A stretch of 64,000 nucleotides of DNA, taken from assembly GCA_934101115.1 (NCBI GenBank), contig CAKOPW010000009.1, positions 677-64,676 on the forward strand, in the 5' to 3' direction. A model generated the notes under the pieces. That model did not search any database and was not told the DNA's origin. It saw only the letters and a program-made list of their open reading frames with translations. Positions 35,884 through 50,862 of the stretch are shown here, one piece after another. The translations under genes were made by a program, and so were the position numbers. The DNA comes from an uncultured Bacilli bacterium. Its GTDB lineage: Bacteria; Bacillota_I; Bacilli_A; RF39; UBA660. The stretch's first letter is position 1. The number at the start of each line of letters is the position of its first letter.

Positions 35884-36417
35884 GTGGATGAAGTGATAGA
35901 TAAGTTTGTTCCAGATAAATATTTTAAAAGCATATATGATATAAATTATGAATTGTTAAAAAAAACTGGTGTTAAATGTTTAGTTTTTGATATTGCTAAT
36001 ACACTAATGCCAGAGACTTCTACTAAACCAAGTAAAAAAGTAAAAGATTTATTTGAAGACCTTAAGGATATGGGATTTAAAATTATACTTTTAAGCAATA
36101 ACTTTAAGAGAAATGTTGAGTCATTTAAAGAAGAATTATGTGTGGATTCAGCTTATCTTTCATTTAAGCCGTTTAAGTTTAAGTATAAGAAAATTGTTAA
36201 ATTATTTGATTTTAAAGATACAGAAATTGCTTGTATAGGGGACCAACTCCTATATGATATTTTGGGGGCAAACAGGATGAATTTCACATCAATACTTGTT
36301 AATCCAATAAGTGTTGATGAATATGCAGTTTCTAAATTAAATAGAAAATTGGAGAACTTAATTATAAAAAGAATAACAAAAAAAGATTTATTTAAAAAAG
36401 GAAGATATTATGAATAA
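35884..36417 (+). CDS. yqeG: YqeG-family HAD-IIIA phosphatase
   Basis: FVPDKYFKSIYDI..ELLKK.GVK.L.FDIANTL aligns with the B. subtilis YqeG N-terminus. Sits upstream of yqeH, as in Bacillus. The start may be GTG 35893. Confidence 0.75.
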   Translation: MDEVIDKFVPDKYFKSIYDINYELLKKTGVKCLVFDIANTLMPETSTKPSKKVKDLFEDLKDMGFKIILLSNNFKRNVESFKEELCVDSAYLSFKPFKFKYKKIVKLFDFKDTEIACIGDQLLYDILGANRMNFTSILVNPISVDEYAVSKLNRKLENLIIKRITKKDLFKKGRYYE

Positions 36418-37402
36418 GATATGTTTTGGATGTGGTGTGAAACTACAATCAACGGATAAAGAAAAACTTGGCTACGTACCAGAAGAAAAATTAGAATCAT
36501 CAAAATACTGTATGCGTTGTTTTAGGATGATGCATTATGGAGAGGTAAGATTAGAAGAAACTCCTAAAGATAAAAAGGAGATAATTAACAAAATTAATAA
36601 AGATAATAAGTTTGTTATATTTTTAGTTGACTTTTTAAATATAAATGATAATACAATGGATTTATATAAAAGTATAAAGCGTGATAAACTTCTTGTAATT
36701 AATAAGTGTGAGTTGTTACCTAAACATGTTAAACGTGAAAACATAAGAAATTTCGTCAAGGAATATTATCACGTTAATGGAGAGATAAGACTTAAAGGTG
36801 GTAATAATTCTCATGGAGCTACGTCTATCTTAAATTATTTAGAAAAAAATAATATAAAAGAAACTTATATAGTAGGAATGACTAATGCTGGTAAAAGTAC
36901 ATTAATAAATGATTTGATAAAAGCAACAAATACAGATGTTTCTAAAATTAATGTAAACAATAAAAAGAATACAACTCTTGATTTTATTCGTGTAAAATTG
37001 AATAATGGTCTTCTTTTAATTGATTCTCCAGGAATTGTATTTGATGACTTTGTGTCATGTGATGTTGTTGATGATAGTGTAGGTGCTTATAGTTTTAATA
37101 TGAAATCAGGTGAAACTTTGGCTTTACTTGATAGAAAATATTATGTAAAAGTAGATTCGTCAACGCCAATAACTTTTTATACTAATTTAAGTGCTAAAAA
37201 TGTTGCTAAGAAAGTTTATAAGAATTCTGAAAAATTGAACAATTCAATAGAAGTTTTAGGAAATACGGATATAGTTATAAAAGGTATTGGTTTTATATCT
37301 ATAAAAAATAGAACAAAAGTAAGTCTTAATATAGATCCTAAATATTTAGAAATTAGAAAGAGTATTTTTGGAGGTATTTATGAAAATACAAGTAATGAGT
37401 GA
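36410..37402 (+). CDS. yqeH: ribosome biogenesis GTPase YqeH
   Basis: N-terminal zinc finger (CFGCG...CMRC) and a circularly permuted GTPase (NKCELL before GMTNAGKSTLIN). Confidence 0.85.
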   Translation: MNKICFGCGVKLQSTDKEKLGYVPEEKLESSKYCMRCFRMMHYGEVRLEETPKDKKEIINKINKDNKFVIFLVDFLNINDNTMDLYKSIKRDKLLVINKCELLPKHVKRENIRNFVKEYYHVNGEIRLKGGNNSHGATSILNYLEKNNIKETYIVGMTNAGKSTLINDLIKATNTDVSKINVNNKKNTTLDFIRVKLNNGLLLIDSPGIVFDDFVSCDVVDDSVGAYSFNMKSGETLALLDRKYYVKVDSSTPITFYTNLSAKNVAKKVYKNSEKLNNSIEVLGNTDIVIKGIGFISIKNRTKVSLNIDPKYLEIRKSIFGGIYENTSNE

Positions 37403-39155
37403 TAATTTAGCTAATAAAATTGCTGCAGGAGAAGTTGTTGAAAGAATTTCTTCAGTTGTCAAAGAATTAGTTGAAAATAGTATTGATGCTGGTAGTAAAA
37501 CTATAATTGTTGATTTAGTTGAAAGTGGAACTAAGCAAATAAAAGTGACTGATGATGGAAGCGGAATGGATCATGATGATGCTCTTTTATCATTTAGAAG
37601 ACATGCAACTAGTAAGATAAAAAAAGAAGATGATTTATTTTTTATTTCTACGTTGGGATTTCGTGGTGAAGCATTGCCAAGTATTGCATCAGTTTCAAAG
37701 GTGGATCTTCGTACTTCAACTGGAGTAGGCGGAACACATATCGTTATTAATGGAGGAACTCTAGTAACTGATGAACCATCTCAAGAAAAATGTGGAACAA
37801 CTATAAGTGTTAATGATTTATTTTATAATACACCTGCTAGATTAAAATATTTAAAAAGTGATATTACAGAACTTTCTAATGTAACTACCTATATTGAAAA
37901 ACTAGCATTAAGTCATCCAAATATTTCTTTTACTTTAACTAATAATGATAAAAGAATTGTATTTACTTCGGGTAGTTCTGATCTTCTTAAAACTATTCAT
38001 GAAATATATGGTTATCAAGTTAGTTCTAATATGCTTTCTTTTAAGGCTAGTAATGATGATTATGATATCTCTGGTTTTATTTGTAAACCTTGTATTTTAA
38101 AAAGCAATAGAAATCATATGACAACTATTGTTAATGGAAGATGCGTAAGAAATGCCGAAGTTAATGCAGCTATAAATGATGGTTATCATACTTTTAAACC
38201 GGATATAAAGTATCCAGTTGTAGTAATGATGATTGATACCGATCCAACACTTATAGATGTTAATATCCATCCAACAAAACAAGATATTAAATTTTCGAAA
38301 ATTGATGGACTTAAAACTCTTATTACAGAAACAGTTAATTCAACACTAAAAAAAGCTCTTTTAATTCCAAAGATAGATACTTATGAATATCAAGAAATCA
38401 ATGAATATCCAACAATATCTGATGTTGAAAAGATAGAAACAGAAGAGATTCAATTTGACTTTAAAACGACTCCAAAAGAAGATATAACCAAGGAATCCAC
38501 TTTTGAGGATATTAAAGAAATTGTTGATGAAACTAAAAATCCAGATTTGGTTGAAAATGAACAAATAAAAAAAGAAGAGCTATATGCTGTAGGAATCGCT
38601 TTAGGAACTTATATAATAGCTCAAAATGAAAAAGGAATGTATTTGATTGATCAACATGCAGCTCAAGAAAGAATCAATTATGAACGCGTTTTAAGAGGAC
38701 TTGAAAGTGCAACTATTTATACAACACCTTTACTTCTTCCAATTCCAATTGAACTTACTACATCGGAATTTTTAAAGATAAAAGAGAATATGAATGTATT
38801 AAATGATTTAGGTTTTAAAATAGAAGAATTTGGAATAAATACATTTGTAGTTAAAGAGCATCCTACTTGGTTGATAAATGGATTAGAAACAGAAAGCATT
38901 AGACGTATATTTGATATTATAATTGAAGGTAAGAATATGTTTGATCGAGTTAAATTTCATGACCATATAGCAGCAACTATGGCATGCAAAATGAGCGTTA
39001 AAGGTAATGAAGCAATAACACTTGAACAAGCCCAAAAACTTTTAGATGATTTGGTTTTATGCAATAATCCTTATAACTGCCCACATGGAAGACCAACAAT
39101 AATTACATTTACTCGTTATGAACTTGAAAGAATGTTTAAAAGAGTTATGAATTAG
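37380..39155 (+). CDS. mutL: DNA mismatch repair protein MutL
   Basis: N-terminal GHKL ATPase (LANKIAAGEVVERISSVVKELVENSIDAG, DDGSGM) and the C-terminal endonuclease motif DQHAAQERINYE. ATG 37380 lies behind ggagg. Confidence 0.92.
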   Translation: MKIQVMSDNLANKIAAGEVVERISSVVKELVENSIDAGSKTIIVDLVESGTKQIKVTDDGSGMDHDDALLSFRRHATSKIKKEDDLFFISTLGFRGEALPSIASVSKVDLRTSTGVGGTHIVINGGTLVTDEPSQEKCGTTISVNDLFYNTPARLKYLKSDITELSNVTTYIEKLALSHPNISFTLTNNDKRIVFTSGSSDLLKTIHEIYGYQVSSNMLSFKASNDDYDISGFICKPCILKSNRNHMTTIVNGRCVRNAEVNAAINDGYHTFKPDIKYPVVVMMIDTDPTLIDVNIHPTKQDIKFSKIDGLKTLITETVNSTLKKALLIPKIDTYEYQEINEYPTISDVEKIETEEIQFDFKTTPKEDITKESTFEDIKEIVDETKNPDLVENEQIKKEELYAVGIALGTYIIAQNEKGMYLIDQHAAQERINYERVLRGLESATIYTTPLLLPIPIELTTSEFLKIKENMNVLNDLGFKIEEFGINTFVVKEHPTWLINGLETESIRRIFDIIIEGKNMFDRVKFHDHIAATMACKMSVKGNEAITLEQAQKLLDDLVLCNNPYNCPHGRPTIITFTRYELERMFKRVMN

Positions 39156-39163
39156 GAGGGTTT

Positions 39164-40015
39164 ATGAAAAAAAAGATACTTATTGGCATTATTATTGTGC
39201 TTGTTGTATTTTCTTCGATATTTGTTATTTTTACTCTTGATAAAAAAGATGAAAAAGCAATTATTCCTGTTACTAACAGTAGCACTTCATCAACTTCGAT
39301 TGAAACAAGTGAAGTTACAACCGAGACAACTACATCAGTAACTGAAGAGGTATCTACAACATTAACAACAAAAAAGACAGAAACAACTAAGAAAACTACT
39401 ACTAAAAAGTCAACAACGACACTTGATTACAAACTAGTGAAAGAAACTAAAAGCGAAGAGACTACAAAGTATGGAACTATAATAAAAGATAATTATGAAA
39501 TATCTTATAAAGTTTATAACGATGGGAGAAAGGAAGAAACATCTAAAAAGAAAAAGAGTACAACAATTGATTCTACAAATTTTAAAGCAACAACGAGTGA
39601 ATTAAAAAGTGAAGCTAATTCTGTAAAGAATTCTAATAAAAGTACTTATAATGAAATGCTTTCATATGTTAATAATTATCGAAGTGAGGTTAATGTAGGT
39701 TCGTTAACTATTGATGACAATTTGAATTTGGCAGCTACGATTCGTGCAATTGAGATGGCTTATTCAAAAAAGTTTTCTCATACTAGACCAGATGGAAGTA
39801 TGTGTTATAGTGTCATTGATGATTTAGGAATTACGGCTTATTCAATAGGAGAAAATATAGCATATGGTCAAAGAACAGTTGCTGCTGTAAGTGAGGCATG
39901 GAAAAATTCTTCTGGTCATTATGCTAATATGATAAGTTCAAACTTTTCAAAAATTGGATTTGGCAAGTATACTTTAAATGGATATACTTATTGGGTTCAA
40001 ATATTTGCTGATTAA
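39164..40015 (+). CDS. CAP/SCP-domain protein with an N-terminal TM anchor and Thr/Ser-rich linker
   Basis: C-terminal YRSEVNVGSL...FSHTRPDG...GENIAYG...W.NSSGHYANM is a CAP (PR-1-like) pattern. Confidence 0.75.
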   Translation: MKKKILIGIIIVLVVFSSIFVIFTLDKKDEKAIIPVTNSSTSSTSIETSEVTTETTTSVTEEVSTTLTTKKTETTKKTTTKKSTTTLDYKLVKETKSEETTKYGTIIKDNYEISYKVYNDGRKEETSKKKKSTTIDSTNFKATTSELKSEANSVKNSNKSTYNEMLSYVNNYRSEVNVGSLTIDDNLNLAATIRAIEMAYSKKFSHTRPDGSMCYSVIDDLGITAYSIGENIAYGQRTVAAVSEAWKNSSGHYANMISSNFSKIGFGKYTLNGYTYWVQIFAD

Positions 40016-40041
40016 ATATTCTCGTTTTGAGAATATTTTTT
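40014..40041 (+). terminator. rho-independent terminator
   Basis: Stem aaatattctc (40014-40023) pairs with gagaatattt (40029-40038), followed by a T-run. Confidence 0.65.
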
Positions 40042-40042
40042 C

Positions 40043-40071
40043 TTGCAATAAATCGTATTTTTAATTATAAT
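40043..40071 (+). promoter_or_regulatory. sigma-A promoter of the three-paralog operon
   Basis: TTGCAA (40043-40048), 17 nt spacer, TATAAT (40066-40071). Confidence 0.55.
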
Positions 40072-40096
40072 ATGTTCTACATTGGAGGGGTGTTTT

Positions 40097-40894
40097 ATGA
40101 AAATACTTATAATAATTATGGAAATTATTCTATACTTTACTGAACGTGCAAGACTTTCAAGAATGTTACAAGATAAAGGATACTTTTACAAACGTTTTTC
40201 AATATTTAAAACTAAGCCATTACTAAAAATATTGATTATGCTACTTTACATTTTATCAGCGCTATTTCCTTTATGCTTTATAGTTTTTAATGATATTCTA
40301 TTTTATTCAGTTAAAAGAAAAATCGAAACTGATATTGATTCTTTAAAACCTTACCTTATCCCTATGACTGAAAGAGAAAAACAATTTCATGAAAATGTTA
40401 AAAATGTTAAATCTCGTGAAGAAGTGTTGGATTTACTAGAAAGTCCATTAACTAATGAACAAACAGAAACTCTTACTGACAAGAGAAAATCTAAGGGTCT
40501 TAAAACAAATCAAAAGAGTTTAAGAAAGTTTCAAAATCGCTTACTCCCTCTTGCTTATACTTTAGATGAGGTAGAATACATAAGTGAGAATCTTAATATT
40601 CCTTACACACTTGCAACTGATGGAAGCATTAATATGGCATTTCTTGGAATGGATGAAAAAAACAATTTTAAAAGCTATGTTGATGGCGAAAATGTAACAT
40701 TTAATATAATAGGTTTAGATGAAGCTAAAGATTCTACTTTCATTGTTTTTACATCTTGTGGTGAAGAATTGACTGATCCTTTGATCGAAAATATTAGAAT
40801 TATGAGAAAAAATAAAAGTGTTTGTTCAATACCAACAAGCTCAGATGCTTATGAATTTGTTACGAATGATAAAAAATTAGAAAGGGTATTGTAG
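40097..40894 (+). CDS. unknown-family membrane protein, paralog 1 of 3
   Basis: ATG lies behind ggagggg. N-terminal TM and a second hydrophobic segment. C-terminal block LPLAYTLDEVEYISENLNIPYTLATDG...AFLG is shared with the next two genes. Confidence 0.55.
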   Translation: MKILIIIMEIILYFTERARLSRMLQDKGYFYKRFSIFKTKPLLKILIMLLYILSALFPLCFIVFNDILFYSVKRKIETDIDSLKPYLIPMTEREKQFHENVKNVKSREEVLDLLESPLTNEQTETLTDKRKSKGLKTNQKSLRKFQNRLLPLAYTLDEVEYISENLNIPYTLATDGSINMAFLGMDEKNNFKSYVDGENVTFNIIGLDEAKDSTFIVFTSCGEELTDPLIENIRIMRKNKSVCSIPTSSDAYEFVTNDKKLERVL

Positions 40895-40895
40895 T

Positions 40896-41738
40896 ATGGC
40901 TTTTTTTGTCCTTTTTACATTTTATGTAATTTTAGCTTATTTAACTGGTAATGTTTATAAAACTATTATGGATCGAAAGAAATATGAAGTATTTTTTAAA
41001 TTTGCTGAAGAAGGATATGTTTTAAAAGATGATCCAGTGTTTTCAGAAGAGGAAAAAGAAAGACTTGCTTCGTTTGCGATTATGTCTGACCTTTTTAAAT
41101 TCATACCATTTATTAATATAATTGGAGCACTTGCTCTCACTCAAGAAACGATTAAAATGTATAAGTCGGCAAAATATTCAGAAAAAGATAAACTTTATTT
41201 GTCAGAGGAGGATAGAAATAAGTTTTTAAAAAGTAATAGTTATTTGGAAAAAAAGTTAATTATAGATAAAGTTGCTTTAGAACTCGGATTAATGCACTTT
41301 GCTTCATATTTGAGAACGTCTATAATAATATATGATATTTTATTGTTAAAATGTCAATTGTGTCCAATGGCATATACGTTAGATGAAGTAAAACTTATTG
41401 CAGAAAAGCTAAAAGTACCATTTACTCTTGGAAAAATAGATGGCATACCAGTTGCTTTAATTGGAGCACGTATTTTTGAAAGCATTAAAACAGATGATAA
41501 TTCTTTATATGAAATATCAGATGATTTTGGCTCAAATGATCATTTTAAAATTTATTTAATTAATAAAGAAGAATTAACCGATGAAGCTATTAATGGTTTA
41601 GTTGACATGGTTAATAATAATAGAAGAAAGTCTAATAAAGAACCTTATGAAACAACCTCGCCGAATTTAAATAATTGTTTAGCTGAACAACTTGAATGTG
41701 CACCAATTGATGAGATAAGACTAGAAAAGAGAATATAA
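40896..41738 (+). CDS. unknown-family membrane protein, paralog 2 of 3
   Basis: Starts 1 nt after the paralog-1 stop. Contains FKFIPFINIIGAL, LSEEDR, CPMAYTLDEVKLIAEKLKVPFTLGKIDGIPVALIG and FKIYLINKEELTDE. Confidence 0.55.
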   Translation: MAFFVLFTFYVILAYLTGNVYKTIMDRKKYEVFFKFAEEGYVLKDDPVFSEEEKERLASFAIMSDLFKFIPFINIIGALALTQETIKMYKSAKYSEKDKLYLSEEDRNKFLKSNSYLEKKLIIDKVALELGLMHFASYLRTSIIIYDILLLKCQLCPMAYTLDEVKLIAEKLKVPFTLGKIDGIPVALIGARIFESIKTDDNSLYEISDDFGSNDHFKIYLINKEELTDEAINGLVDMVNNNRRKSNKEPYETTSPNLNNCLAEQLECAPIDEIRLEKRI

Positions 41739-41739
41739 T

Positions 41740-42555
41740 ATGCCTTCTTTTATAATAGCATTTTTAATATATGCATTTTTAACGTATAAGACTATTCAAG
41801 TTCAAGATAACTTGTTAAATTTGATGAAGTATCGAATTGCAAAAAAGTTAACTTCTAAAGGGTTTATATTAAAAAATGGAAAACATTTTAATGAACAAGA
41901 GCAAAAGAACTTTGATATACTTTTAATGATAAATGATATAATTAAATTTATTCCTTTTATTAATGCTGTATATGCTGCAATGTTTTCAAATTTAGTGGTA
42001 AGGAAAGCTACTAAAAGAAATTATTCGGATAATGAAAAAATATATCTAAGTAAAGAAGAAAAATTTAATATAACAGGTGCTAAAAATGTTCATGAATTAA
42101 TTATAGCTGTTGATAAGGTTCGTTTAAGAGACATGAACGAAGATAGGAAAAAATATTTTTCTACTTCATATGTTTCATCTGGAAAGCTTCATTTAAAAGG
42201 TAAACTACCTGATTTATCTTATACTTTATCTGAAGTTTATAAAATAGCTACTATGTTGGATAAACCTTTTACTATTGGTAAAATAGGAGATGATTATCTA
42301 GCTTTTGTTGGTAATAATATTGAAAATCTGATAAATACTCATCCTGATAATAAGCTGTTTGTTCCAATGAAAGAAGTAGAGGATAATAGCAGATTTGAAG
42401 TATATTTAATAAATTTAGAAGATTTATCTGAAGAAGAAAAGAATCAAGTAGTTGAAGTAATAAAAAATGAAAGAGATATAGATTCTTCTGATTCTGAACC
42501 TAATATAAAAGTCTTTGAATCAACAGAAGAAAGAAAGTTAGAATTAACGCGTTAA
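41740..42555 (+). CDS. unknown-family membrane protein, paralog 3 of 3
   Basis: Starts 1 nt after the paralog-2 stop. Contains IKFIPFINAVYAA, LSKEEK, LPDLSYTLSEVYKIATMLDKPFTIGKIGDDYLAFVG and FEVYLINLEDLSEE. Confidence 0.55.
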   Translation: MPSFIIAFLIYAFLTYKTIQVQDNLLNLMKYRIAKKLTSKGFILKNGKHFNEQEQKNFDILLMINDIIKFIPFINAVYAAMFSNLVVRKATKRNYSDNEKIYLSKEEKFNITGAKNVHELIIAVDKVRLRDMNEDRKKYFSTSYVSSGKLHLKGKLPDLSYTLSEVYKIATMLDKPFTIGKIGDDYLAFVGNNIENLINTHPDNKLFVPMKEVEDNSRFEVYLINLEDLSEEEKNQVVEVIKNERDIDSSDSEPNIKVFESTEERKLELTR

Positions 42556-42602
42556 ACCGTTAATTTTTTTATGTATATTTTTGTAAAATAATAAAAAACA
42601 GA

Positions 42603-42672
42603 TTGATTGAAGTGGCATTTTAGTGTATATTATATGTAGACAGTGGCAGAAAGTGGAAGAAAGTGGGGAAAT
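42603..42672 (+). promoter_or_regulatory. Pmra promoter with MraZ-type GTGG direct-repeat operator
   Basis: TTGATT (42603-42608), 17 nt spacer, TATATT (42626-42631). AGTGG(N)5 units begin at 42611, 42642, 42652 and 42662, and the last three have exact 10-bp phasing. Confidence 0.6.
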
Positions 42673-42674
42673 TT

Positions 42675-43118
42675 ATGTTGATGGGTGAGTATCATCATAA
42701 TATTGATGATAAAAATCGACTAGTTCTTCCGAGTAAGTTTAGAAACGAATTAGGAGAAAAAATCATTATTACTCGTGGACTAGATAAATGCTTATTCGTC
42801 TATTCGACCAGCGAATGGCAAAAAATTGTCGATAAATTAAAAACTTTACCATTTACACATAAAGACGCTCGTGACTTTGTTCGATTTTTCTTATCTGGCG
42901 CTATCGAAGCTGAATTCGACCGTAGTGGAAGAATCAGCATTACCTCCCCATTGATCGGATATGCCGGTATTACACGTGAATGTGTTATTATCGGCGCAAA
43001 CGATCGACTAGAAATTTGGGATAATGATTCATGGAATAATTTCCTAAATGAAAATGATGAAAAATTTGCAAGTATAGCAGAAAATTTATTTACTACAGGT
43101 GATTACAATGCATTATAG
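42675..43118 (+). CDS. mraZ: transcriptional regulator MraZ
   Basis: MLMGEYHHNIDDKNRLVLPSKFR plus a second DxxxR repeat (EFDRSGRISI). Heads the dcw cluster. Confidence 0.9.
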   Translation: MLMGEYHHNIDDKNRLVLPSKFRNELGEKIIITRGLDKCLFVYSTSEWQKIVDKLKTLPFTHKDARDFVRFFLSGAIEAEFDRSGRISITSPLIGYAGITRECVIIGANDRLEIWDNDSWNNFLNENDEKFASIAENLFTTGDYNAL

Positions 43119-44019
43119 TGTTTTGCTTAAAGAAAGTATTGATTTACTAAATATAAAAGAAGATGGAATATATGTTGATTGTACATTAGGCTATGCTGGT
43201 CATAGTAAAGAGATTCTAAAAAGATTAAAAAATGGATTCCTTTATGCTTTTGATCAAGATTTAGAGGCAATTGAATATTCTAGAAAAGTTTTATCAGAGA
43301 TTGGAGATAATTTTGAGATAATTCATTCCAATTTTTCCAATTTGAAAAATGAACTTATGGAAAGAGGAGTTACTCACGTTGATGGAATTTTATTTGACTT
43401 AGGATTTTCTTCTCCTCAAATCGACAATGTTACTCGTGGTTTTTCTTTTATGAAAGATGCAGATCTCGATATGCGTATGGATCAAACAGCAAAGAAAAGC
43501 GCTTATGATGTAGTAAATAATTATAGTCAAGAAGAATTAACTAATATATTTTATAAATATGCTGAAGAGAAATATTCAAAAAGCATTGCTAAAAATATTG
43601 TATCTTCAAGACCAATAAAAAGAACTTTAGAACTTGTAGATATTATAAAAAGAAGTGTACCAGTTAGTTACTATAATACAAGACATCCTGAACGTGTTAT
43701 ATTTCAAGCGATAAGAATTGAAGTAAACAATGAACTTGGTGTCTTAGAAAGTGTTCTACCTGATGCTATAGATTTATTAAATTGTGAAGGAAGAATTGCT
43801 GTTATAACGTTCCATTCTTTAGAGGATAGAATAGTTAAGCATATATTTAAAAATGCCAGCGAAGTTCCGGAAATAGTAAAAGGTATCCCTGATATACCTG
43901 ATGAATATAAACCAAAAATAAAATTAATAAATAAAAAACCAATTGTTGCATCAAGCAACGAAATAAATGAAAACTCACGAAGCAAAAGTGCCAAACTTAG
44001 AGTAATAGAAAGGGTATAG
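43108..44019 (+). CDS. rsmH: 16S rRNA (cytosine1402-N4)-methyltransferase RsmH
   Basis: H.SVLL.E, YVDCTLGYAGHS, DLGFSSPQ and ITFHSLEDR motifs. Overlaps mraZ by 11 nt. Confidence 0.92.
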   Translation: MHYSVLLKESIDLLNIKEDGIYVDCTLGYAGHSKEILKRLKNGFLYAFDQDLEAIEYSRKVLSEIGDNFEIIHSNFSNLKNELMERGVTHVDGILFDLGFSSPQIDNVTRGFSFMKDADLDMRMDQTAKKSAYDVVNNYSQEELTNIFYKYAEEKYSKSIAKNIVSSRPIKRTLELVDIIKRSVPVSYYNTRHPERVIFQAIRIEVNNELGVLESVLPDAIDLLNCEGRIAVITFHSLEDRIVKHIFKNASEVPEIVKGIPDIPDEYKPKIKLINKKPIVASSNEINENSRSKSAKLRVIERV

Positions 44020-44021
44020 TT

Positions 44022-44318
44022 ATGAAAAAATCAACTTCAAACAAAGGAATTAAATTTAAAAAAGGAGAAAAGTTAATTATTGCAGTTTTAGCTCTTCTTG
44101 CACTTATGACACCAGTTATGATTGTGTATACAAGTGCTACTTTATCAAGTTCAAATATTGAAGTCGAAAAGATGAAGAAGAAAATTGAAAAACAAGAAAA
44201 TGTTAATTCAAGTTTATCAATGCAAGTAGATGAACTTGCAAGTCTATCCACTATTCAAGATGTTGCAAAGAGTAATGGTTTAAGCTATAATAATGATAAT
44301 ATAATAGTTATTAAATAA
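44022..44318 (+). CDS. ftsL: cell division protein FtsL-like
   Basis: 98 aa with one TM helix followed by a coiled coil. Lies in the canonical position between rsmH and the PBP. Confidence 0.6.
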   Translation: MKKSTSNKGIKFKKGEKLIIAVLALLALMTPVMIVYTSATLSSSNIEVEKMKKKIEKQENVNSSLSMQVDELASLSTIQDVAKSNGLSYNNDNIIVIK

Positions 44319-44334
44319 TAAGTGAGGTTAAAGC

Positions 44335-46515
44335 ATGAAATATACGAACAATACAATTAAAATCAATTTTGTTTTTATAATTTGTATTGTTCTTTTATTT
44401 GTGCTTTTTTTTGCTAAGCTTGCTTATGTTGCAACCAATGATACAGTGGAAGGTTCTAATTTAAAAGAGATTGCTGAAGCTAGAAGTACAACAACTAAAA
44501 CTCTTTATGCAACACGTGGTAATATTTATGATAATGCTAATAATCTTTTAGCTCAAAATGTTAATTCATATACTTTAATAGCTTATCTTTCTTCTAGCAG
44601 AACTACTGATGAAAGATATCCTAAGCATGTTGTTGATAAAGAAACTACGGCAAGAAAGCTTGCAGAAGTGCTTGAACCTATTAATAAGACAATGACCTAT
44701 GAATATATTTATAAAAGATTGAATGTAGAAAATAAGTATCAAGTTGAATTTGGAGCTGGTGGTAAAAATCTAAGCGAACTTGATAAACAAAAGATAGAAG
44801 AGCTTGATCTTCCAGGAATAGCGTTTGTTAAATCATCTAAAAGATATTATCAAAATGGAGATTTTGCTTCATATTTAATTGGTTATGCTAAAAAGAATGA
44901 AGAAACTGATGAGATAACAGGTGAACTTGGTATTGAAAAGTTTTGTGATAGATATTTAAAAGGAAAAGACGGAAGTATTACATACCAACATGATGCTTAT
45001 GGTTATCAAATGGCTGATAAAGTAAGTCAAAATACACCGGCTGAAGATGGATATGATGTTTATCTTACATTGGATAAACAAGTTCAAATATTCCTTGATA
45101 ATGCTGTAACTGAATTTAATGAATATAATCCTTCTTGGGTAACTATAACGGTGGCTGATGCTAAAACGGGTGCAATAATCGGCTCTTCTACTTCTCCAAG
45201 TTTTAATCCAAATAAGCTTGATTTACAAAATTATAATGATCCACTTATTTCATACACTTATGAACCTGGTAGTACAATGAAGATATTTTCGTTTGCTTCA
45301 GCTATTGAAGAAGGTTTATATAAAGGAGACGAATTATATAGATCAGGTACGGTTGAAGTAGCTGATTATAAGATAAAGGATTGGAATAAAGTAGGTTGGG
45401 GAAATATTACATATGATGTAGGATTCACGTATTCTTCTAATGTTGCAGCCGTTAACCTATCAAAAAGATTAAAAAAGCAAGGTTTAACTAAATATTATAC
45501 TAATCTAGGATTTGGAGAAAAAACGGGAATTGAACTTGCTAATGAATATAAAGGAGATATTAATTTTGAGTACGAAACAGAAGTTGCTTCAGCTTCATAT
45601 GGACAAGGTATAACGGTTACTCCGATTCAAATGATTCAAGCACTTACAACATTAACAAATGATGGAACAGTTATGAAACCATATATAATTGAAAAGATTG
45701 TTGATCCAAATAAGAATGAAGTGGTTTACCAAGGTGGTAAAAAGGAACTTAATAAAGTGTATTCAACTTCAACGATAAATAAAATTAAAGAACTTATGGA
45801 TTTAACAGTTAATGGATCTGATACTGGGGCAACTGGACGTGTATACCATACAGATTCAGTTAGACTTATTGGTAAAACAGGTACAGCTAACTATACGAAT
45901 GGAGCTGGTAGTTATATTGTTGGTAACTATAATGTAATTAGATCTTTTGCTGGAATATTTCCAAAGGATGATCCAGAATATATTTTGTATGTTGCTGTAA
46001 AAGATTTCCATGGAACTAGCAAAAATATGGGAACAATTGTTAAAAAAATGGTTGAAAGCGTTGCTAAATATAAAAATCTTGATACAAGAGTTAGTGATAA
46101 AGACTCTAGCAAAATTGTAGATATAGATTCATATGTTAATAAAACTGTAACTGCTGCTACATCTTCTTTACAAAGTAAAGGAATAAATCCTTTAGTTATT
46201 GGTGATGGTACTAGAGTAATAAAACAATATCCTGAAGCTGGTGTAAAAACAAGTCAAAGTTCAAAAGTTTTCTTACTAACAAATAGTAAAAATATAACAA
46301 TGCCAGATATAACTGGTTGGAGTGAAAGTGAAGTTATCAATTTCTGTAATTTAATCGGTCTTAAATATAATTTTAACAATTACGGATATGTAGAAACTTA
46401 TAGTATTCCAGCAGGAACATCGTTGGATATTGAAAATTCTACACTTGAAGTTAATTTTCAAAATATAAATCCAAATACATATTCCAAAAAGAAAGAAGAA
46501 GAAAAAAATGAATAA
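44335..46515 (+). CDS. penicillin-binding protein 2B / SpoVD-type transpeptidase with two PASTA domains
   Basis: N-terminal TM and a dimerisation domain. GSTMKIF (SxxK), YSSNVA (SxN), GKTGTA (KTG), and two C-terminal PASTA-like repeats. Confidence 0.88.
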   Translation: MKYTNNTIKINFVFIICIVLLFVLFFAKLAYVATNDTVEGSNLKEIAEARSTTTKTLYATRGNIYDNANNLLAQNVNSYTLIAYLSSSRTTDERYPKHVVDKETTARKLAEVLEPINKTMTYEYIYKRLNVENKYQVEFGAGGKNLSELDKQKIEELDLPGIAFVKSSKRYYQNGDFASYLIGYAKKNEETDEITGELGIEKFCDRYLKGKDGSITYQHDAYGYQMADKVSQNTPAEDGYDVYLTLDKQVQIFLDNAVTEFNEYNPSWVTITVADAKTGAIIGSSTSPSFNPNKLDLQNYNDPLISYTYEPGSTMKIFSFASAIEEGLYKGDELYRSGTVEVADYKIKDWNKVGWGNITYDVGFTYSSNVAAVNLSKRLKKQGLTKYYTNLGFGEKTGIELANEYKGDINFEYETEVASASYGQGITVTPIQMIQALTTLTNDGTVMKPYIIEKIVDPNKNEVVYQGGKKELNKVYSTSTINKIKELMDLTVNGSDTGATGRVYHTDSVRLIGKTGTANYTNGAGSYIVGNYNVIRSFAGIFPKDDPEYILYVAVKDFHGTSKNMGTIVKKMVESVAKYKNLDTRVSDKDSSKIVDIDSYVNKTVTAATSSLQSKGINPLVIGDGTRVIKQYPEAGVKTSQSSKVFLLTNSKNITMPDITGWSESEVINFCNLIGLKYNFNNYGYVETYSIPAGTSLDIENSTLEVNFQNINPNTYSKKKEEEKNE

Positions 46516-47026
46516 AGTAAAAGAATTTTTTAATAGCCCTAGACCTATAATAATAACTTTAATAGTTTTGCTTGCTATAAGTGTTTTAGTTATATATAAA
46601 TTAAGTACATCTAGTAAAATCTATATATCTTCTATTAATGACGATGAAGTAAGTATTTCAACTATTCATGCTTTTATCAATAATGACATGCATATGTTTT
46701 ATTCAACTCCAGCCACTTATAATAAGGATGATTATAAAATATATGGAATTACTGCTGGATATTATGTTAAAACAGGAAATGAATATATGGAATTTTTAAC
46801 TCAAAGTGATGAATTTGATTCAGCTGAGTCTTTGTCTAAAACTTTAGAGTTCTATAGTGCCTTTAATTATATTGAAAGCAATAATAAACATGAAAAATTT
46901 AGTAAAACGGTAAAGAAAAATTTTGAAGATAATCTATATTTTGTGGTTAAAGTAAAAAAGGATAAAAATAGCAGTTTAGAAACTATTTATGAGAAAAAAA
47001 TAGAGATGAAGAAACTAACTAAATAA
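46508..47026 (+). CDS. hypothetical membrane-anchored protein
   Basis: Overlaps the PBP stop by 8 nt. Single N-terminal TM helix. No family recognised. Confidence 0.45.
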   Translation: MNKVKEFFNSPRPIIITLIVLLAISVLVIYKLSTSSKIYISSINDDEVSISTIHAFINNDMHMFYSTPATYNKDDYKIYGITAGYYVKTGNEYMEFLTQSDEFDSAESLSKTLEFYSAFNYIESNNKHEKFSKTVKKNFEDNLYFVVKVKKDKNSSLETIYEKKIEMKKLTK

Positions 47027-47105
47027 GAATTGTTTTTTTTAATAAATATGGTGCTTGTTAGCACTTTTTCTTTGTGTTATTATAATTATCCAAGGAGATG
47101 AATGT

Positions 47106-47648
47106 ATGAAAATTGTCAGAAATGGCACAGTTTATATGCAAGTAAGAGACTTTAAAAAACTATTAGAGGTAAAAGTTGATGAAGCATTGACTAATGAAAT
47201 TTTTGCTATTTTACTTAAAGAAGCAAGCAAAGGTACTGGTTTTTTTGTTATGAGCAGTAGTAATGCGAATGATTTTTTGGAATTTAGAAACCAAAAATCA
47301 GTTGAATACTTAACGAAGCTTGATGATATAGCTGATTATGATGAAATAAAAGATTTAAGCTGTGAAGAAATGGATGCTTTAAGAGTTTGTATTATTAATG
47401 AAAAAAATGAGATAGCTTCTAAAATAAATTTAATGTCTGCAGAAGAACAAAATGAACATCCAGAGCTATTTAAAAGATATAATGCACTTTCTTTGAAATT
47501 TCTTTCGCTTAATGATGTTTATTGGTTTAAACGTGGAAAATCTAAATTAGTGCTTCCGGATGGAGTAGAAGAGTTGAAACCAATTTCATTTGGCAGTGAA
47601 CTTAAGTTACGTATTAAAAATGCTTTTAGTAGAAAAAGTGGCAAATAA
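47106..47648 (+). CDS. hypothetical protein
   Basis: ATG 47106 lies behind aaggagat. 180 aa, soluble. No family recognised. Confidence 0.45.
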   Translation: MKIVRNGTVYMQVRDFKKLLEVKVDEALTNEIFAILLKEASKGTGFFVMSSSNANDFLEFRNQKSVEYLTKLDDIADYDEIKDLSCEEMDALRVCIINEKNEIASKINLMSAEEQNEHPELFKRYNALSLKFLSLNDVYWFKRGKSKLVLPDGVEELKPISFGSELKLRIKNAFSRKSGK

Positions 47649-47683: not shown

Positions 47684-47760
47684 TGGTGACCCGTACGGGA
47701 TTTGAACCCATGAATGCATGCGTGAAAGGCATGTGTGTTAAACCACTTCACCAACGGGCC
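47684..47760 (-). tRNA. tRNA-Glu (TTC)
   Basis: The reverse complement reads GGCCCGTTGGTGAAGTGGTTTAACACACATGCCTTTCACGCATGCATTCATGGGTTCAAATCCCGTACGGGTCACCA. It has anticodon loop cTTTCAc and an encoded CCA. Confidence 0.9.
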
Positions 47761-49385: not shown

Positions 49386-50369
49386 ATGGATAGTAAAAAA
49401 GACGTAAACAATAAACAAAAATCTTATTTAACAAAAAAAGAAAAAGAAAATATTAGAAAAGGTGTACTTGAAGAAATAAATGATGAGGTTCGTTCTAGTT
49501 TATGTGAAAATGTATTAAACGATGTAAATGAACGTATCAATGATGAATATAAAGAAAATTTAAAAGAAACTATTTCTAATGAAATCATAAGTGATATTAA
49601 AGAAAGCATCAAAGAAGATGAGAAAAAAATGTCTCGTCGTAAAAGTTTTAAAATTGTTAGATTATATATTTATATCTTATTACTAATGGCAGGCTCTGTT
49701 TTCTTGATTTATAAATTATATGTTACAGGTAATTTAGATGTTGTTAAAGATATAAAAATTTCTACAACTACAACGACTACAACTACAGCGTTAGTAAAAG
49801 ATCTAAAATGGTATATGAATAAATATGGAAATATTTTGGATAATATAAAATTTGACAATGTAGCTTTGCTAAAAGGAAATTTTGATGTAAGTAAAATTGA
49901 TATAAAAGATAAACTTGCTATTGCATATAATAATTTATCAAGTGAATCTATTTCTAAGGATGGAATAATTTATTCTGTTAAAGAAGAAGATTTAAAAAAT
50001 TCTTATATAAGTATATTTGGAAGCGAAGAAGGATATTCATCTAGTTCATTCCAAATAGGTGGGGTAGCTTTTGCTTATTCTTTATCCAATGCAACATATA
50101 TGGCAATTGCAAATAAGGATATTGTTAGTGATAGTATTTTAACAGAAATTACTAGCATCAAAGAAGAAAATGACGAACTTGTTGTAGAATGCATAACAGG
50201 ATTAGTAAAAGATAATAAACTCTATAATATAAATAATCAAGAAGTTGCTTTAAAGGATTATAGTAGCGGTGAATCATTAAAGTCTTCCGAGAGTAACTTA
50301 TCAAAAAATAAATTTACATTTAAACTTATTAATGATAAATATTATATAAGTTCAATTTCAGTTATTTAA
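49386..50369 (+). CDS. hypothetical bitopic membrane protein
   Basis: Acidic/basic N-terminal region, one TM helix, a Thr7 linker, and an extracytoplasmic domain of unknown family. Confidence 0.5.
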   Translation: MDSKKDVNNKQKSYLTKKEKENIRKGVLEEINDEVRSSLCENVLNDVNERINDEYKENLKETISNEIISDIKESIKEDEKKMSRRKSFKIVRLYIYILLLMAGSVFLIYKLYVTGNLDVVKDIKISTTTTTTTTALVKDLKWYMNKYGNILDNIKFDNVALLKGNFDVSKIDIKDKLAIAYNNLSSESISKDGIIYSVKEEDLKNSYISIFGSEEGYSSSSFQIGGVAFAYSLSNATYMAIANKDIVSDSILTEITSIKEENDELVVECITGLVKDNKLYNINNQEVALKDYSSGESLKSSESNLSKNKFTFKLINDKYYISSISVI

Positions 50370-50451
50370 ATATGCTTTTTTGCATATTTTTTTTGTTTTA
50401 CAAGAAAATCATGAATTTATCGGTAAAGATATTTATAGGAGGGATAAATTT

Positions 50452-50862
50452 ATGAATTATGAAAATTATATACATAACTTGTTTGTTGATAATGAAATAT
50501 TTCAATATTCAATTAGTGAAATAGAGAATCAACATGAAATAAGTTTTTATATTCGCTTTGGAAGTGTTCTTTATAATTTGAATCACGATTATGGATCAAC
50601 TGGTTTAAGAAAAATGGTTGATTATATTAACTCGGAAATAAAACAGGATATTTCGTTAAAAGAAGTAAAACAAGTTATTAAATTCTTTAAACTTATATGT
50701 CGTGGAATGATTATAAGTTATAAGTTGACGTTTGATCATTATAAATGTTTATTAAAATATGATGATGTTGTTTTTATCAATAGCTGTATTGAAATTATCA
50801 ATAGAAATCCGATGAATATAGAACGTTTTGAAGAGATTATAAATGGAAAAAGAAGTAATTAA
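50452..50862 (+). CDS. hypothetical protein (136 aa)
   Basis: ATG 50452 lies behind taggaggga. No family recognised. Confidence 0.4.
   Translation: MNYENYIHNLFVDNEIFQYSISEIENQHEISFYIRFGSVLYNLNHDYGSTGLRKMVDYINSEIKQDISLKEVKQVIKFFKLICRGMIISYKLTFDHYKCLLKYDDVVFINSCIEIINRNPMNIERFEEIINGKRSN

Follow-up and report, generated by a model that had tools for sequence, protein, structure and literature searches.

What do three small genes in tandem immediately upstream of mraZ encode, and do they belong to the division cluster that follows them? In the window (the whole 64,000-nucleotide stretch of DNA that was analyzed), gene A (positions 40097–40894, 265 aa), gene B (40896–41738, 280 aa), and gene C (41740–42555, 271 aa) lie on the forward strand, and the next ATG begins 1 nt past the stop codon of A as well as of B. 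The three lengths, the positions, and the 1-nt gaps given in the first-pass annotation of this DNA were reproduced. For gene A, the ORF program reaches upstream to a TTG at 40082; the ATG at 40097 is preferred because a GGAGGGG Shine-Dalgarno sequence on the same strand (40084–40090), positioned 6 nt 5′ of this ATG and kept in related loci, suits it. At least eight related loci retain the stop-N-ATG spacing, including some with no more than 42–54% protein identity. Upstream lies the gene for a CAP/YkwD-family protein (39164–40015; PF00188, E 3.6e-21), which gives the order CAP-domain envelope protein, A/B/C, and mraZ-rsmH-ftsL-pbp2B, with ftsEX and a gene for a PcsB-like hydrolase farther downstream. 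DalA is a Rhodobacterales outer-membrane lipoprotein (PMC10470522). The CAP protein has a weak NCBIfam match to it (42 bits, where the cut-off is 200), which reflects the shared CAP-type domain only, and this assignment was rejected.

The first-pass annotation also described a strong promoter ahead of gene A and terminators flanking the gene set. The promoter candidate is a sigma-70-type TTGCAA-17-TATAAT sequence (40043–40071, forward strand) with 10 of 12 consensus matches. Taken by itself the pattern is at chance level, as this DNA of 27% GC gave 28 promoter-like sites where 26.7 were expected, but neither hexamer varies across five related loci, one of which (L013) has adjoining DNA that is unalignable. 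The upstream intrinsic-terminator-like hairpin with its U-run (40014–40042, forward strand) ends the CAP-domain gene and folds at -11.7 kcal/mol (z -5.7), a stability reached by 0 of 200 shuffled sequences; it is kept in L001, L002, and L003 and absent from L013. While this hairpin can be regarded as real, the one downstream, followed by U7 (42540–42571, forward strand), is less stable (-7.4 kcal/mol, z -1.7). In L013, another hairpin occupies this position, ahead of the same T-run. A terminator scanner called neither hairpin because the stems have too few G-C pairs. Moreover, mraZ has a promoter and an operator of its own that are invariant across loci, and hence A/B/C constitute a separate unit. 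The earlier description of translationally packed genes thus stands, with A/B/C forming their own transcription unit.

Comparison of the protein sequences confirmed that A, B, and C are true paralogs, with similarity far above what chance would give. B and C are 33% identical across 252 aa (BLASTP E 1e-38), and A, the most divergent of the three, shows 35% identity to B across the C-terminal 92 aa (E 1e-10) and matches C with an E of 1e-5. The motifs listed in the first-pass annotation (GY.LK, FIPFIN, LS.EE, LP.AYTLDEV, GKI.....A..G, F.VYLIN, and the terminal KLE) all align in register and are family-wide. BLASTP and the motif alignment together uphold the idea of diverged paralogs with one shared architecture, and a family HMM recovers A, B, and C with E values of 3.7e-47, 4.2e-48, and 2.7e-43, respectively. 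The family was also correctly seen as unrecognized. Searches of A, B, and C against Pfam-A and NCBIfam gave nothing below E 0.03, and when 109 family members were scanned singly against the same two collections, no family was matched by more than one member. Neither PHROGs nor PADLOC matched A, B, or C. Against PDB sequences, the full and domain profiles hit nothing beyond a designed helical protein (E 1.6e-4, compositional) and matches at chance level, and a literature search did not identify the family. An exhaustive profile search of 1.84 billion protein representatives yielded just 195 clusters; one 90%-identity cluster of the family comprises 400 member sequences, and certain members bear two C-terminal domains on one chain. 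All six genome matches are gut MAGs labeled uncultured bacterium, Bacilli, or Tenericutes. Collectively, these data show that the A/B/C region is one sigma-70-type transcription unit carrying three diverged copies of an undescribed, lineage-restricted family of uncultured gut Bacilli.

What kind of protein does this family represent? The gene A product starts with a short hydrophobic helix that contains a Glu; a long hydrophobic segment of hairpin type comes next, and a variable linker leads to a C-terminal α/β domain. The AlphaFold2 model of the gene B product has a pLDDT of 82, and a second model one of 84.5. Foldseek searches, which the first-pass annotation had proposed, were run with full-protein and domain models and gave no significant match in the PDB and, for the full model, none in BFVD [best E values 1.4 (PDB, full model), 0.13 (BFVD, full model), and 0.39 (PDB, domain model)]. 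AlphaFold2 places a helix-break-helix at residues 51–69/73–91, and the predicted strands at 41–43 and 99–101 need partners located past this second hydrophobic segment (segment 2). In keeping with this, covariation of residues 29–44 with 98–122, scored by simple MI-APC on approximately 105 effective sequences, is about tenfold enriched among the top 40 pairs (p 1e-4). Segment 2 is flanked by K/R-rich stretches on both sides, and there is no N-terminal tail.

Judged from AlphaFold2, the charge distribution, and covariation, these features suggest a topology in which an N-out anchor helix precedes a membrane hairpin kinked at Pro and Asn, the α/β domain is cytoplasmic, and the chain finishes in a disordered tail with a basic end. 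The N-terminal helix would anchor the protein with its N-terminus outside, and over the family as a whole it bears a polar stripe of Glu, Thr, and Ser (E 68%, T 62%, and S 51%, at i, i+3, and i+7); B and C of the window are without this Glu. An amphipathic stretch, presumably cytoplasmic, would run into a conserved KGYK strand, and segment 2, kinked at a Pro and an Asn that are almost invariant, would dip into the membrane as a hairpin without crossing it. A conserved (I/L)PMTEEEK element is predicted to contact the KGYK strand. The compact α/β domain, modeled in the order helix, five strands, helix, would lie on the cytoplasmic side and be followed by the disordered tail with its putative terminal basic motif, which is GPVLKK-like or, in the mutL-CAP-mraZ clade, KLE(R/K). 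The near-invariant residues of the family are G, P, N, Y, A, F, and R; the α/β domain thus appears to lack conserved catalytic-type residues and to be non-enzymatic in character. As to the earlier claim that these are membrane proteins, anchoring is plausible and the charges fit an N-out anchor plus hairpin, but the hydropathy of both segments is marginal. The Kyte-Doolittle family averages are approximately 1.7 for segment 1 and 1.2–1.5 for segment 2, and 10 of the 109 members are without any 19-residue stretch over the 1.6 threshold. This marginal hydropathy speaks against the proposed topology, as would, if real, a fusion of gene A in L029 (see below).

Comparison between related genomes gave a new result, that positions 40008–42564 are a hypervariable cassette. 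The MutL, MraZ, and PBP2B flanks are 90–100% identical between these genomes, whereas A/B/C are 27–89% identical. Gene A orthologs are 42–73% identical where MutL is 92–99% identical, and the corresponding ranges for B and C are 47–89% and 52–82%. The dN/dS values are 0.33–0.49 for A/B/C versus 0.00–0.15 for the flanks, at similar dS. The conserved core domain evolves slowest (dN/dS 0.13–0.35) and the linkers, tails, and an anchor helix fastest; stretches with dN/dS of at least 1 are confined to the gapped linker of gene A (residues 91–150) and the N-terminal helix of gene B. The edges are sharp, as blastn homology to L013 ends at 40007 and returns at 42565, and the two hairpins mark the left and right edges of the cassette. 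In between, L013 carries a replaced gene set, in which the third gene is unrelated. The candidate assignment of this third gene, in L013 and L008, as a diverged family member was rejected (hhalign probability 0.3%). These data show that non-synonymous evolution of the cassette is approximately 10–30 times faster than that of the flanking core genes and that the cassette varies in copy number and is exchanged as a unit.

Rapid divergence and replacement by an alternative allele set are what one would expect of surface-exposed envelope proteins diversified by phage or host-antibody pressure. Segment 2 would then be a true membrane span or signal anchor and the C-terminal domain would face outward. 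The adjacent CAP protein, which is of an extracellular type, is variable as well (57–90% identity, dN/dS 0.18–0.24), and a typical segment 2, with some 19 hydrophobic residues after a K-rich stretch, resembles a signal anchor. In addition, in the L029 contig the C-terminal half of A is preceded by an in-frame lipoprotein signal peptide, a fusion that, if real, would put this domain outside the cell; L029 is, however, one 2.2-kb contig from a single sample (ERZ27279825). According to the positive-inside rule, the K-rich cluster directly after segment 2 (consensus KSKKIKKK) disfavors export of the downstream part. Moreover, the AlphaFold2 strands and the covariation join the loop before segment 2 to the region after it, and no part of the proteins evolves more slowly than the core domain. 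On balance, we regard an outward-facing C-terminal domain as quite unlikely.

The same substitution rates could signal decaying or dispensable duplicates, i.e., relaxed constraint on redundant copies without a collective function. Gene-wide dN/dS has no clear excess over 1 in the folded parts, and a copy is lost or replaced in L013 and L026. Against this, intact frames, family motifs, the 1-nt spacing, and the conserved promoter are found in all clade loci read (12 in addition to the window), at identities down to 27%; the core domain has a dN/dS well under 1, and the AlphaFold2 models are confident. Decay therefore seems very improbable. In the first-pass annotation, the low identity between copies was taken to mean old duplications kept as a set. 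The duplications do predate the split of several related species, since A/B/C orthologs are 47–89% identical and paralogs at most 33%. The argument from low identity to great age is nevertheless confounded by evolution as fast as these dN/dS values indicate, and rather than being kept as a set, the copies number two or three, with an unrelated gene in one position in L013.

Does the location beside mraZ point to cell division? A lineage-specific divisome or envelope scaffold could be imagined, in which a ZipA/EzrA-like anchor and cytoplasmic domain, together with a basic C-terminal peptide, recruit or tether a division or cell-wall protein, the copies being placed beside mraZ to act with the division cluster. 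The cassette does lie between the CAP-domain envelope protein and mraZ-rsmH-ftsL-pbp2B, with ftsEX and the PcsB-like hydrolase downstream, and an N-out anchor with its bulk in the cytoplasm would be of the ZipA/EzrA topology type. Each related genome examined has at least two copies behind the conserved constitutive-type promoter. Furthermore, the family tail motif P-x-(V/L)-L-(K/R)-(K/R), past a disordered linker, shares its pattern with the FtsZ C-terminal peptide, a likeness that serves as a lead only; ftsZ itself is not within the window. The wider family gives a different picture. The first-pass annotation had raised mraZ linkage and tandem multiplicity as points to check across the family, and it had named single-copy homologs with unrelated neighbors as the outcome that would speak against its proposal. 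This is the arrangement in 14 of the 14 loci outside the mutL-CAP-mraZ clade. The tandem copies of the clade group together on one branch of the family tree; they arose, adjoining mraZ, within one narrow clade, and this adjacency is a historical accident of that clade, not a trait of the family. Membership in the dcw cluster, judged by family-wide mraZ/rsmH/ftsL synteny and by co-transcription, is not borne out: the synteny occurs only in the mutL-CAP-mraZ clade, and a terminator-like hairpin as well as the promoter/operator of mraZ lie between the cassette and the dcw genes. For the core division genes of these loci, dN/dS is 0.00–0.14, compared with 0.33–0.49 for A/B/C, and a variable copy number with one copy swapped for an unrelated gene also argues against a division scaffold. 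ZipA, EzrA, and SepF Pfam families did not recur in the 109 members, nor did these proteins appear among the Foldseek matches listed. A role as divisome scaffold is thus unlikely.

A hypervariable cassette of variable copy number at a fixed site between core genes is also reminiscent of a phage-exclusion or abortive-infection module acting at the membrane. In such a module, sensing of an infection cue would fall to the cytoplasmic domains, and the anchor helices would oligomerize through their conserved Glu-Thr-Ser stripe into a membrane-disrupting pore. The family is taxonomically restricted, and its neighbors in other lineages are variable and mostly unannotated; the only one recurring across lineages is a DUF488-N3a protein, encoded directly downstream in two of them. 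No defense genes recurred as neighbors. PADLOC and PHROGs, which did not match A/B/C, left nine of 10 neighbors without a match, the sole match being a generic ATPase. The family was not found in phages (tblastn of 50,697 phage records and an IMG/VR scan) or in plasmid collections, and a phage or plasmid origin was rejected given its absence from phage, viral-contig, and plasmid collections. Moreover, B and C of the window do not have the helix 1 Glu, and the cassette, far from being patchily distributed, occurs in all related genomes. We accordingly assign such a module a low probability.

The explanation that we favor, if tentatively and with somewhat less than even confidence, is that A, B, and C are translated together into a hetero-oligomeric membrane complex that is subject to strain-specific selection and is no core division factor. 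As the genes are co-transcribed with stop-N-ATG spacing, the three proteins are probably made in fixed proportion. They would assemble as a hetero-oligomeric, membrane-tethered complex for binding or scaffolding, with a role in a strain-specific interaction, e.g., cell-envelope conflict or recognition, and in no conserved housekeeping step of division. Several observations run counter to this explanation. The conserved promoter and the presence of at least two copies everywhere fit a needed function equally well, a gene-wide dN/dS of 0.4 is possible from relaxed constraint alone, and the family has no match to a defense-system model and is absent from the phage and plasmid collections. A bolder version of the hetero-oligomer, which we consider a long shot, would see in the family both a novel fold and a novel type of membrane-tethered complex, peculiar to uncultured gut Bacilli. 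Here, three co-translated subunits that evolve in concert would come together on the cytoplasmic face of the membrane as a hetero-oligomer specific to the strain, and alleles swapped as cassettes would set compatibility with a variable partner. This partner might be a phage component (exclusion) or an envelope/division determinant of self and non-self, possibly engaged via the FtsZ-tail-like C-terminal peptide.

If the family has its own fold and function, an invisible envelope component would be added to abundant uncultured gut Bacilli; caution is warranted, as orphan families are frequent in metagenome-assembled genomes. The locus is in any event a natural experiment, in which three co-translated paralogs have diverged to 27–50% identity between near-identical neighbors. 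Selection can be separated from ancestry at the cassette, and hence the locus is suited to studying subunit co-evolution and strain-level diversification in the gut.

How do A/B/C compare with known systems? With ZipA/EzrA they would share the N-terminal, N-out anchor helix, the cytoplasmic bulk, and a globular domain tethered by a linker, and in the mutL-CAP-mraZ clade the genes are likewise placed beside division genes. They differ in having no sequence or fold match to those proteins, in the additional Pro/Asn-kinked membrane hairpin that is predicted here, and in being fast-evolving and variable in copy number, with a linkage to division genes that is not family-wide. The predicted helix, five strands, helix order is compatible with the Sm-like/Hfq fold and the MscS cytoplasmic β domain, and Hfq and MscS chains recur among the weak Foldseek matches. 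All of these are non-significant (E at least 1.1, TM-score 0.1–0.25, probability at most 0.14): Hfq chains recur at TM-scores of 0.13–0.25 (E at least 1.1), MscS is found at E 2.3–7 with a TM-score of approximately 0.11, and no MS_channel or LSM Pfam match recurs in the 109 members. As evidence of fold, these matches were rejected, their TM-scores being 0.25 or lower. The CAP/YkwD-family protein is a constant neighbor in the clade and, like A/B/C, evolves faster than the core genes; it is unrelated in fold and family, is separated from A by a terminator hairpin, and does not neighbor family members in other lineages. Finally, the agr and comQXP specificity loci and surface-antigen loci are polymorphic cassettes between core genes, with which the comparison is one of population genetics only. 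Their gene content is dissimilar, since the A/B/C cassette has no genes for a signal peptide precursor, a kinase, or a glycosyltransferase. Like A/B/C, they are discrete transcription units that occupy a fixed site in the chromosome; homology breaks off sharply at their edges, and the alternative alleles are deeply diverged in backgrounds that are nearly identical.

Genes A (40097-40894; 265 aa counted from its ATG), B (40896-41738; 280 aa) and C (41740-42555; 271 aa) lie head to tail on the plus strand, with 1 nt between each stop codon and the next ATG. For A, the ORF list also has a TTG start at 40082; the Shine-Dalgarno sequence GGAGGGG at 40084-40090 suits the ATG instead. B aligns with C over the whole length (33% identity, BLASTP E 1e-38), while A matches B (E 1e-10) and C (E 1e-5) mainly in the C-terminal domain. 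The coordinates, spacers and E-values bear out the three tandem paralogs described in the first-pass annotation, whose motifs each align in register across the three proteins. Its description of the family as unrecognised also stands: A, B and C have no match in Pfam-A, NCBIfam, PHROGs or PADLOC, and when 109 members were scanned singly against Pfam and NCBIfam, no family was matched by more than one of them. Four relatives of B came from a word-indexed search over 5.8 billion proteins, and a profile search gave 49 proteins in all. When 1.84 billion cluster representatives were searched exhaustively with a HMMER profile, 195 matched at E ≤1e-3 (139 at E ≤1e-10), nearly all 255-330 aa long and aligned over their full length. 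Scanning one genome per GTDB species for PLAYTLDEV, which detects only members with that exact motif, returned six loci, all in MAGs labelled uncultured bacterium, Bacilli or Tenericutes and, where the source is titled, from gut. The family was not found in phage genomes, IMG/VR contigs or plasmids; it is new and narrowly distributed. In uncultured bacteria, orphan families are nothing unusual; the behaviour of the cassette and the absent fold match are still notable.

The cassette (40008-42564) is preceded by mutL (37368-39155) and a gene for a CAP/YkwD-type membrane-anchored protein (39164-40015; PF00188, E 3.6e-21). As listed, mutL starts at TTG 37368 and overlaps the preceding GTPase gene (36410-37402) by 35 nt; the gene calls in related loci (591 aa) correspond to ATG 37380 (MKIQVMSD...). 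The CAP protein has a hydrophobic helix at its N-terminus and a linker rich in Ser/Thr; its evolution outpaces that of the core genes, with 57-90% identity from genome to genome. An identity as DalA was rejected, the NCBIfam match being weak and far under the cut-off. The first-pass annotation had set the genes behind a terminator and a strong promoter, and before a hairpin with a T-run. The hairpin and U-run at the end of the CAP gene are indeed strong in RNA folding (-11.7 kcal/mol, z -5.7), and the hairpin and U7 closing the cassette are weaker (-7.4 kcal/mol, z -1.7). The promoter candidate TTGCAA-17-TATAAT (40043-40071, plus strand) is no proof by its pattern, since promoter-like sites are about as frequent as chance predicts (28 against 26.7 expected). 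Both hexamers are, however, invariant in five related loci, including one (L013) whose surrounding DNA is unalignable, and this is probably the cassette promoter. The mraZ leader (42603-42674) is invariant across six loci, L013 and L026 included. It contains a promoter-like TTGATT-17-TATATT (42603-42631) and three GTGG repeats with a 10-nt period (42643-42666), a pattern that occurs once in the window and in none of 100 shuffles. The leader looks like an MraZ operator, repeats of this kind being the known operator type. The division cluster is thus under a control region of its own, with the cassette as a separate unit. The likely mraZ start is ATG 42675 (147 aa, MLMGEYHH...) rather than the listed GTG 42663.

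Downstream of the cassette lie mraZ, rsmH, ftsL and a PBP2B-type transpeptidase gene and, farther on, genes for a polysaccharide deacetylase, ftsE, ftsX, a PcsB-like M23 hydrolase and an RseP-type protease. In the 10 kb annotated after pbp2B the usual murE-mraY-murD-ftsW-ftsA-ftsZ continuation of the division cluster is absent; a minus-strand tRNA (47687-47760) is followed there by ftsE, ftsX and the hydrolase and protease genes. Four ORFs without a Pfam match (172, 197, 327 and 160 aa) lie after pbp2B and around the deacetylase gene (46508-47648 and 49386-50862); the 172-aa product has 95% identity in L001 vs 65% in L013.

Copies were counted with a family HMM over the window and 26 loci, and L026, L027 and L028 were examined besides. 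Three tandem copies are present in the window and in L001, L002, L016 and L017, as well as in L027, where BLASTP matches them to A, B and C. L003 has two, the locus being cut within a third; L028 has two and a third broken by the contig end; and L026 has two, matched by BLASTP. L008 and L013 carry two copies and an unrelated 277-aa ORF (L008 5967-6800; L013 7418-8251) at the third position before mraZ, in one allele; it lacks both a Pfam match and a hydrophobic helix at the N-terminus, and was ruled out as a diverged family member (hhalign probability 0.3%). The other 14 loci, all outside the mutL-CAP-mraZ clade, have a single copy, and their neighbours are mutually unrelated (QueH and a Mur-type ligase, cdaA, hisS-aspS and others). 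Neither tandem multiples in homologs generally nor a conserved dcw/mraZ linkage was borne out. The earlier observation is confirmed, and its interpretation holds in part. The CAP gene is a constant left neighbour within this clade only. The sole neighbour recurring across lineages, in two of them, is a DUF488-N3a protein directly downstream; this protein (212-218 aa; L007 4571-5209, L014 6579-7235, also L023 and L025) is a weak to borderline match (best E 6e-7) beside a single-copy family gene. A neighbour-joining tree built without bootstrap from 109 members groups all mutL-CAP-mraZ copies into a single clade of 15 leaves, which places the multiplication within that lineage. Judged by sequence, A, B and C form a tightly packed set of three, co-transcribed and originating in a single lineage. 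Three distant members (P0160, P0178 and P0215; 388-396 aa) have two C-terminal alpha/beta domains per polypeptide, indicating that module multiplicity arose more than once. Two others, which retain the N-terminal part of the family protein, may be rearranged or disrupted copies, running into unrelated sequence without a Pfam match after the PMT motif (P0217, 328 aa) or the start of the C-terminal domain (P0164, 270 aa).

The cassette is hypervariable: its proteins evolve very fast, and it is exchanged at one fixed position. Amino-acid identities to the window are 99% for MutL, 100% for MraZ and 99% for PBP2B in L001, with 73% for A, 89% for B and 82% for C; in L016 they are 97%, 99% and 94%, with 64%, 48% and 62%; and in L027, 98% for MutL, with 54%, 49% and 52%. 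In L013 (MutL 98%, MraZ 99%, PBP2B 94%) the family genes have only 27-31% identity to their best window matches, too little to tell whether they correspond to A, B or C. The dS of A/B/C (0.14-0.79) lies within the range of the flanking genes, and their non-synonymous divergence is 10-30 times that of the flanks. dN/dS is 0.33-0.49 in A/B/C, compared with 0.18-0.24 in the CAP gene and 0.00-0.15 across seven flanking genes. In sliding windows (five pairs, short windows), it is highest in A's gapped linker (1.0-2.4), B's anchor helix (about 1.2) and the tails, and lowest in the conserved domain core (0.13-0.35). Simple relaxed constraint would agree with the mean dN/dS; it is very unlikely given that frames, motifs, spacing and promoter are all preserved. 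The stop-N-ATG spacing is retained in window-like, L016-like, L027-like and L026-like alleles, which argues for translational coupling. By blastn, the window and L013 align at 35894-40007 and 42565-47027 (89-91% identity), so that one breakpoint falls where the CAP gene ends and the other at the cassette terminator; between them only 96 nt align, coding for the YTLDEV...GK core. Because L013 is nearer to the window than L016 in the flanks and far more distant in the cassette, replacement by recombination is indicated over divergence in place. Such population genetics would suit a phage-exclusion effector, a rather improbable role since no connection to defence or to phages emerged.

The confident AlphaFold2 model of B (pLDDT 82, pTM 0.62) has a long helix (2-38), a short strand at the GY.LK motif (41-43), a helix-break-helix (51-69/73-91) broken at the conserved FIP motif, a strand (99-101, YLS) and two helices; an alpha/beta domain (142-245; two short strands, a helix, five strands and a helix) and a disordered tail follow. 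In helix 1 (consensus MYILLGILGEI.TI.GS), one face carries the polar residues E (68%), T (62%) and S (51%), and segment 2, the second hydrophobic stretch, has about 19 hydrophobic residues with P (99%) and N (93%). Both segments are marginal in hydropathy (10 of 109 members lack a 19-residue stretch above 1.6). The predicted topology that we prefer has its anchor helix N-out, a hairpin dipping into the membrane and most of the protein in the cytoplasm, taking together the K/R-rich flanks on both sides of segment 2, the absence of an N-terminal tail, the strands 41-43 and 99-101, whose partners are possible only beyond segment 2, and covariation. In the latter (MI-APC, ~105 effective sequences), which looked for contact of the loop ahead of segment 2 with the part behind it, pairs between 29-44 and 98-122 account for 5 of the top 40 vs 0.47 expected (p 1e-4), an enrichment that persists in the top 100 and top 200. 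A ZipA/EzrA-like divisome anchor would have this topology and position; the evolutionary rate is too high and the linkage not conserved, which makes it unlikely. Charge pattern and covariation likewise disagree with a surface-exposed variable protein, an improbable alternative with which the variability and a lipoprotein fusion in L029 agree. In this fusion (P0041, 1054-1776) a lipoprotein signal peptide (LAGC lipobox) and Ser/Thr-rich linker are joined in frame to an A-type protein from about residue 94 to its end, with a B-type gene next. L029 is a single 2.2-kb contig, 99% identical to L003 from nt 1284, with an EamA transporter gene upstream in place of the CAP gene. The fusion is either a real rearrangement, in which case it bears on topology, or an assembly or read chimera.

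Our main reading, a tentative one, is that A/B/C, presumably membrane-anchored, would act in a strain-specific interaction and not in a conserved step of division. The N-out anchor would carry a cytoplasmic, non-enzymatic domain, and A, B and C might assemble as a hetero-oligomer. Family-wide motifs are KGYK (its G 98%), (L/I)PMTEEEK, L.PLAYTLDEV, G..DG.N.AIIG.P, F.VYP and, in the final helix, I..I...R; the variable tail ends in a basic motif (e.g., GPVLKK; KLE(R/K) in the mutL-CAP-mraZ clade). Residues that hardly vary are G, P, N, Y, A, F and R, a set that would suit a scaffold or a binding module more than an enzyme. PDB sequence searches matched only a designed helical protein, and Foldseek gave nothing significant (best E 1.4 in PDB for the full model, 0.13 in BFVD, and 0.39 in PDB for a domain-only model from 60 sequences, pLDDT 84.5). 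Among its weak matches, Hfq and MscS chains are recurrent. At TM-scores of 0.1-0.25 they offer a lead rather than a finding: the order of secondary structure in the C-terminal domain is similar to that of an Sm-like unit.
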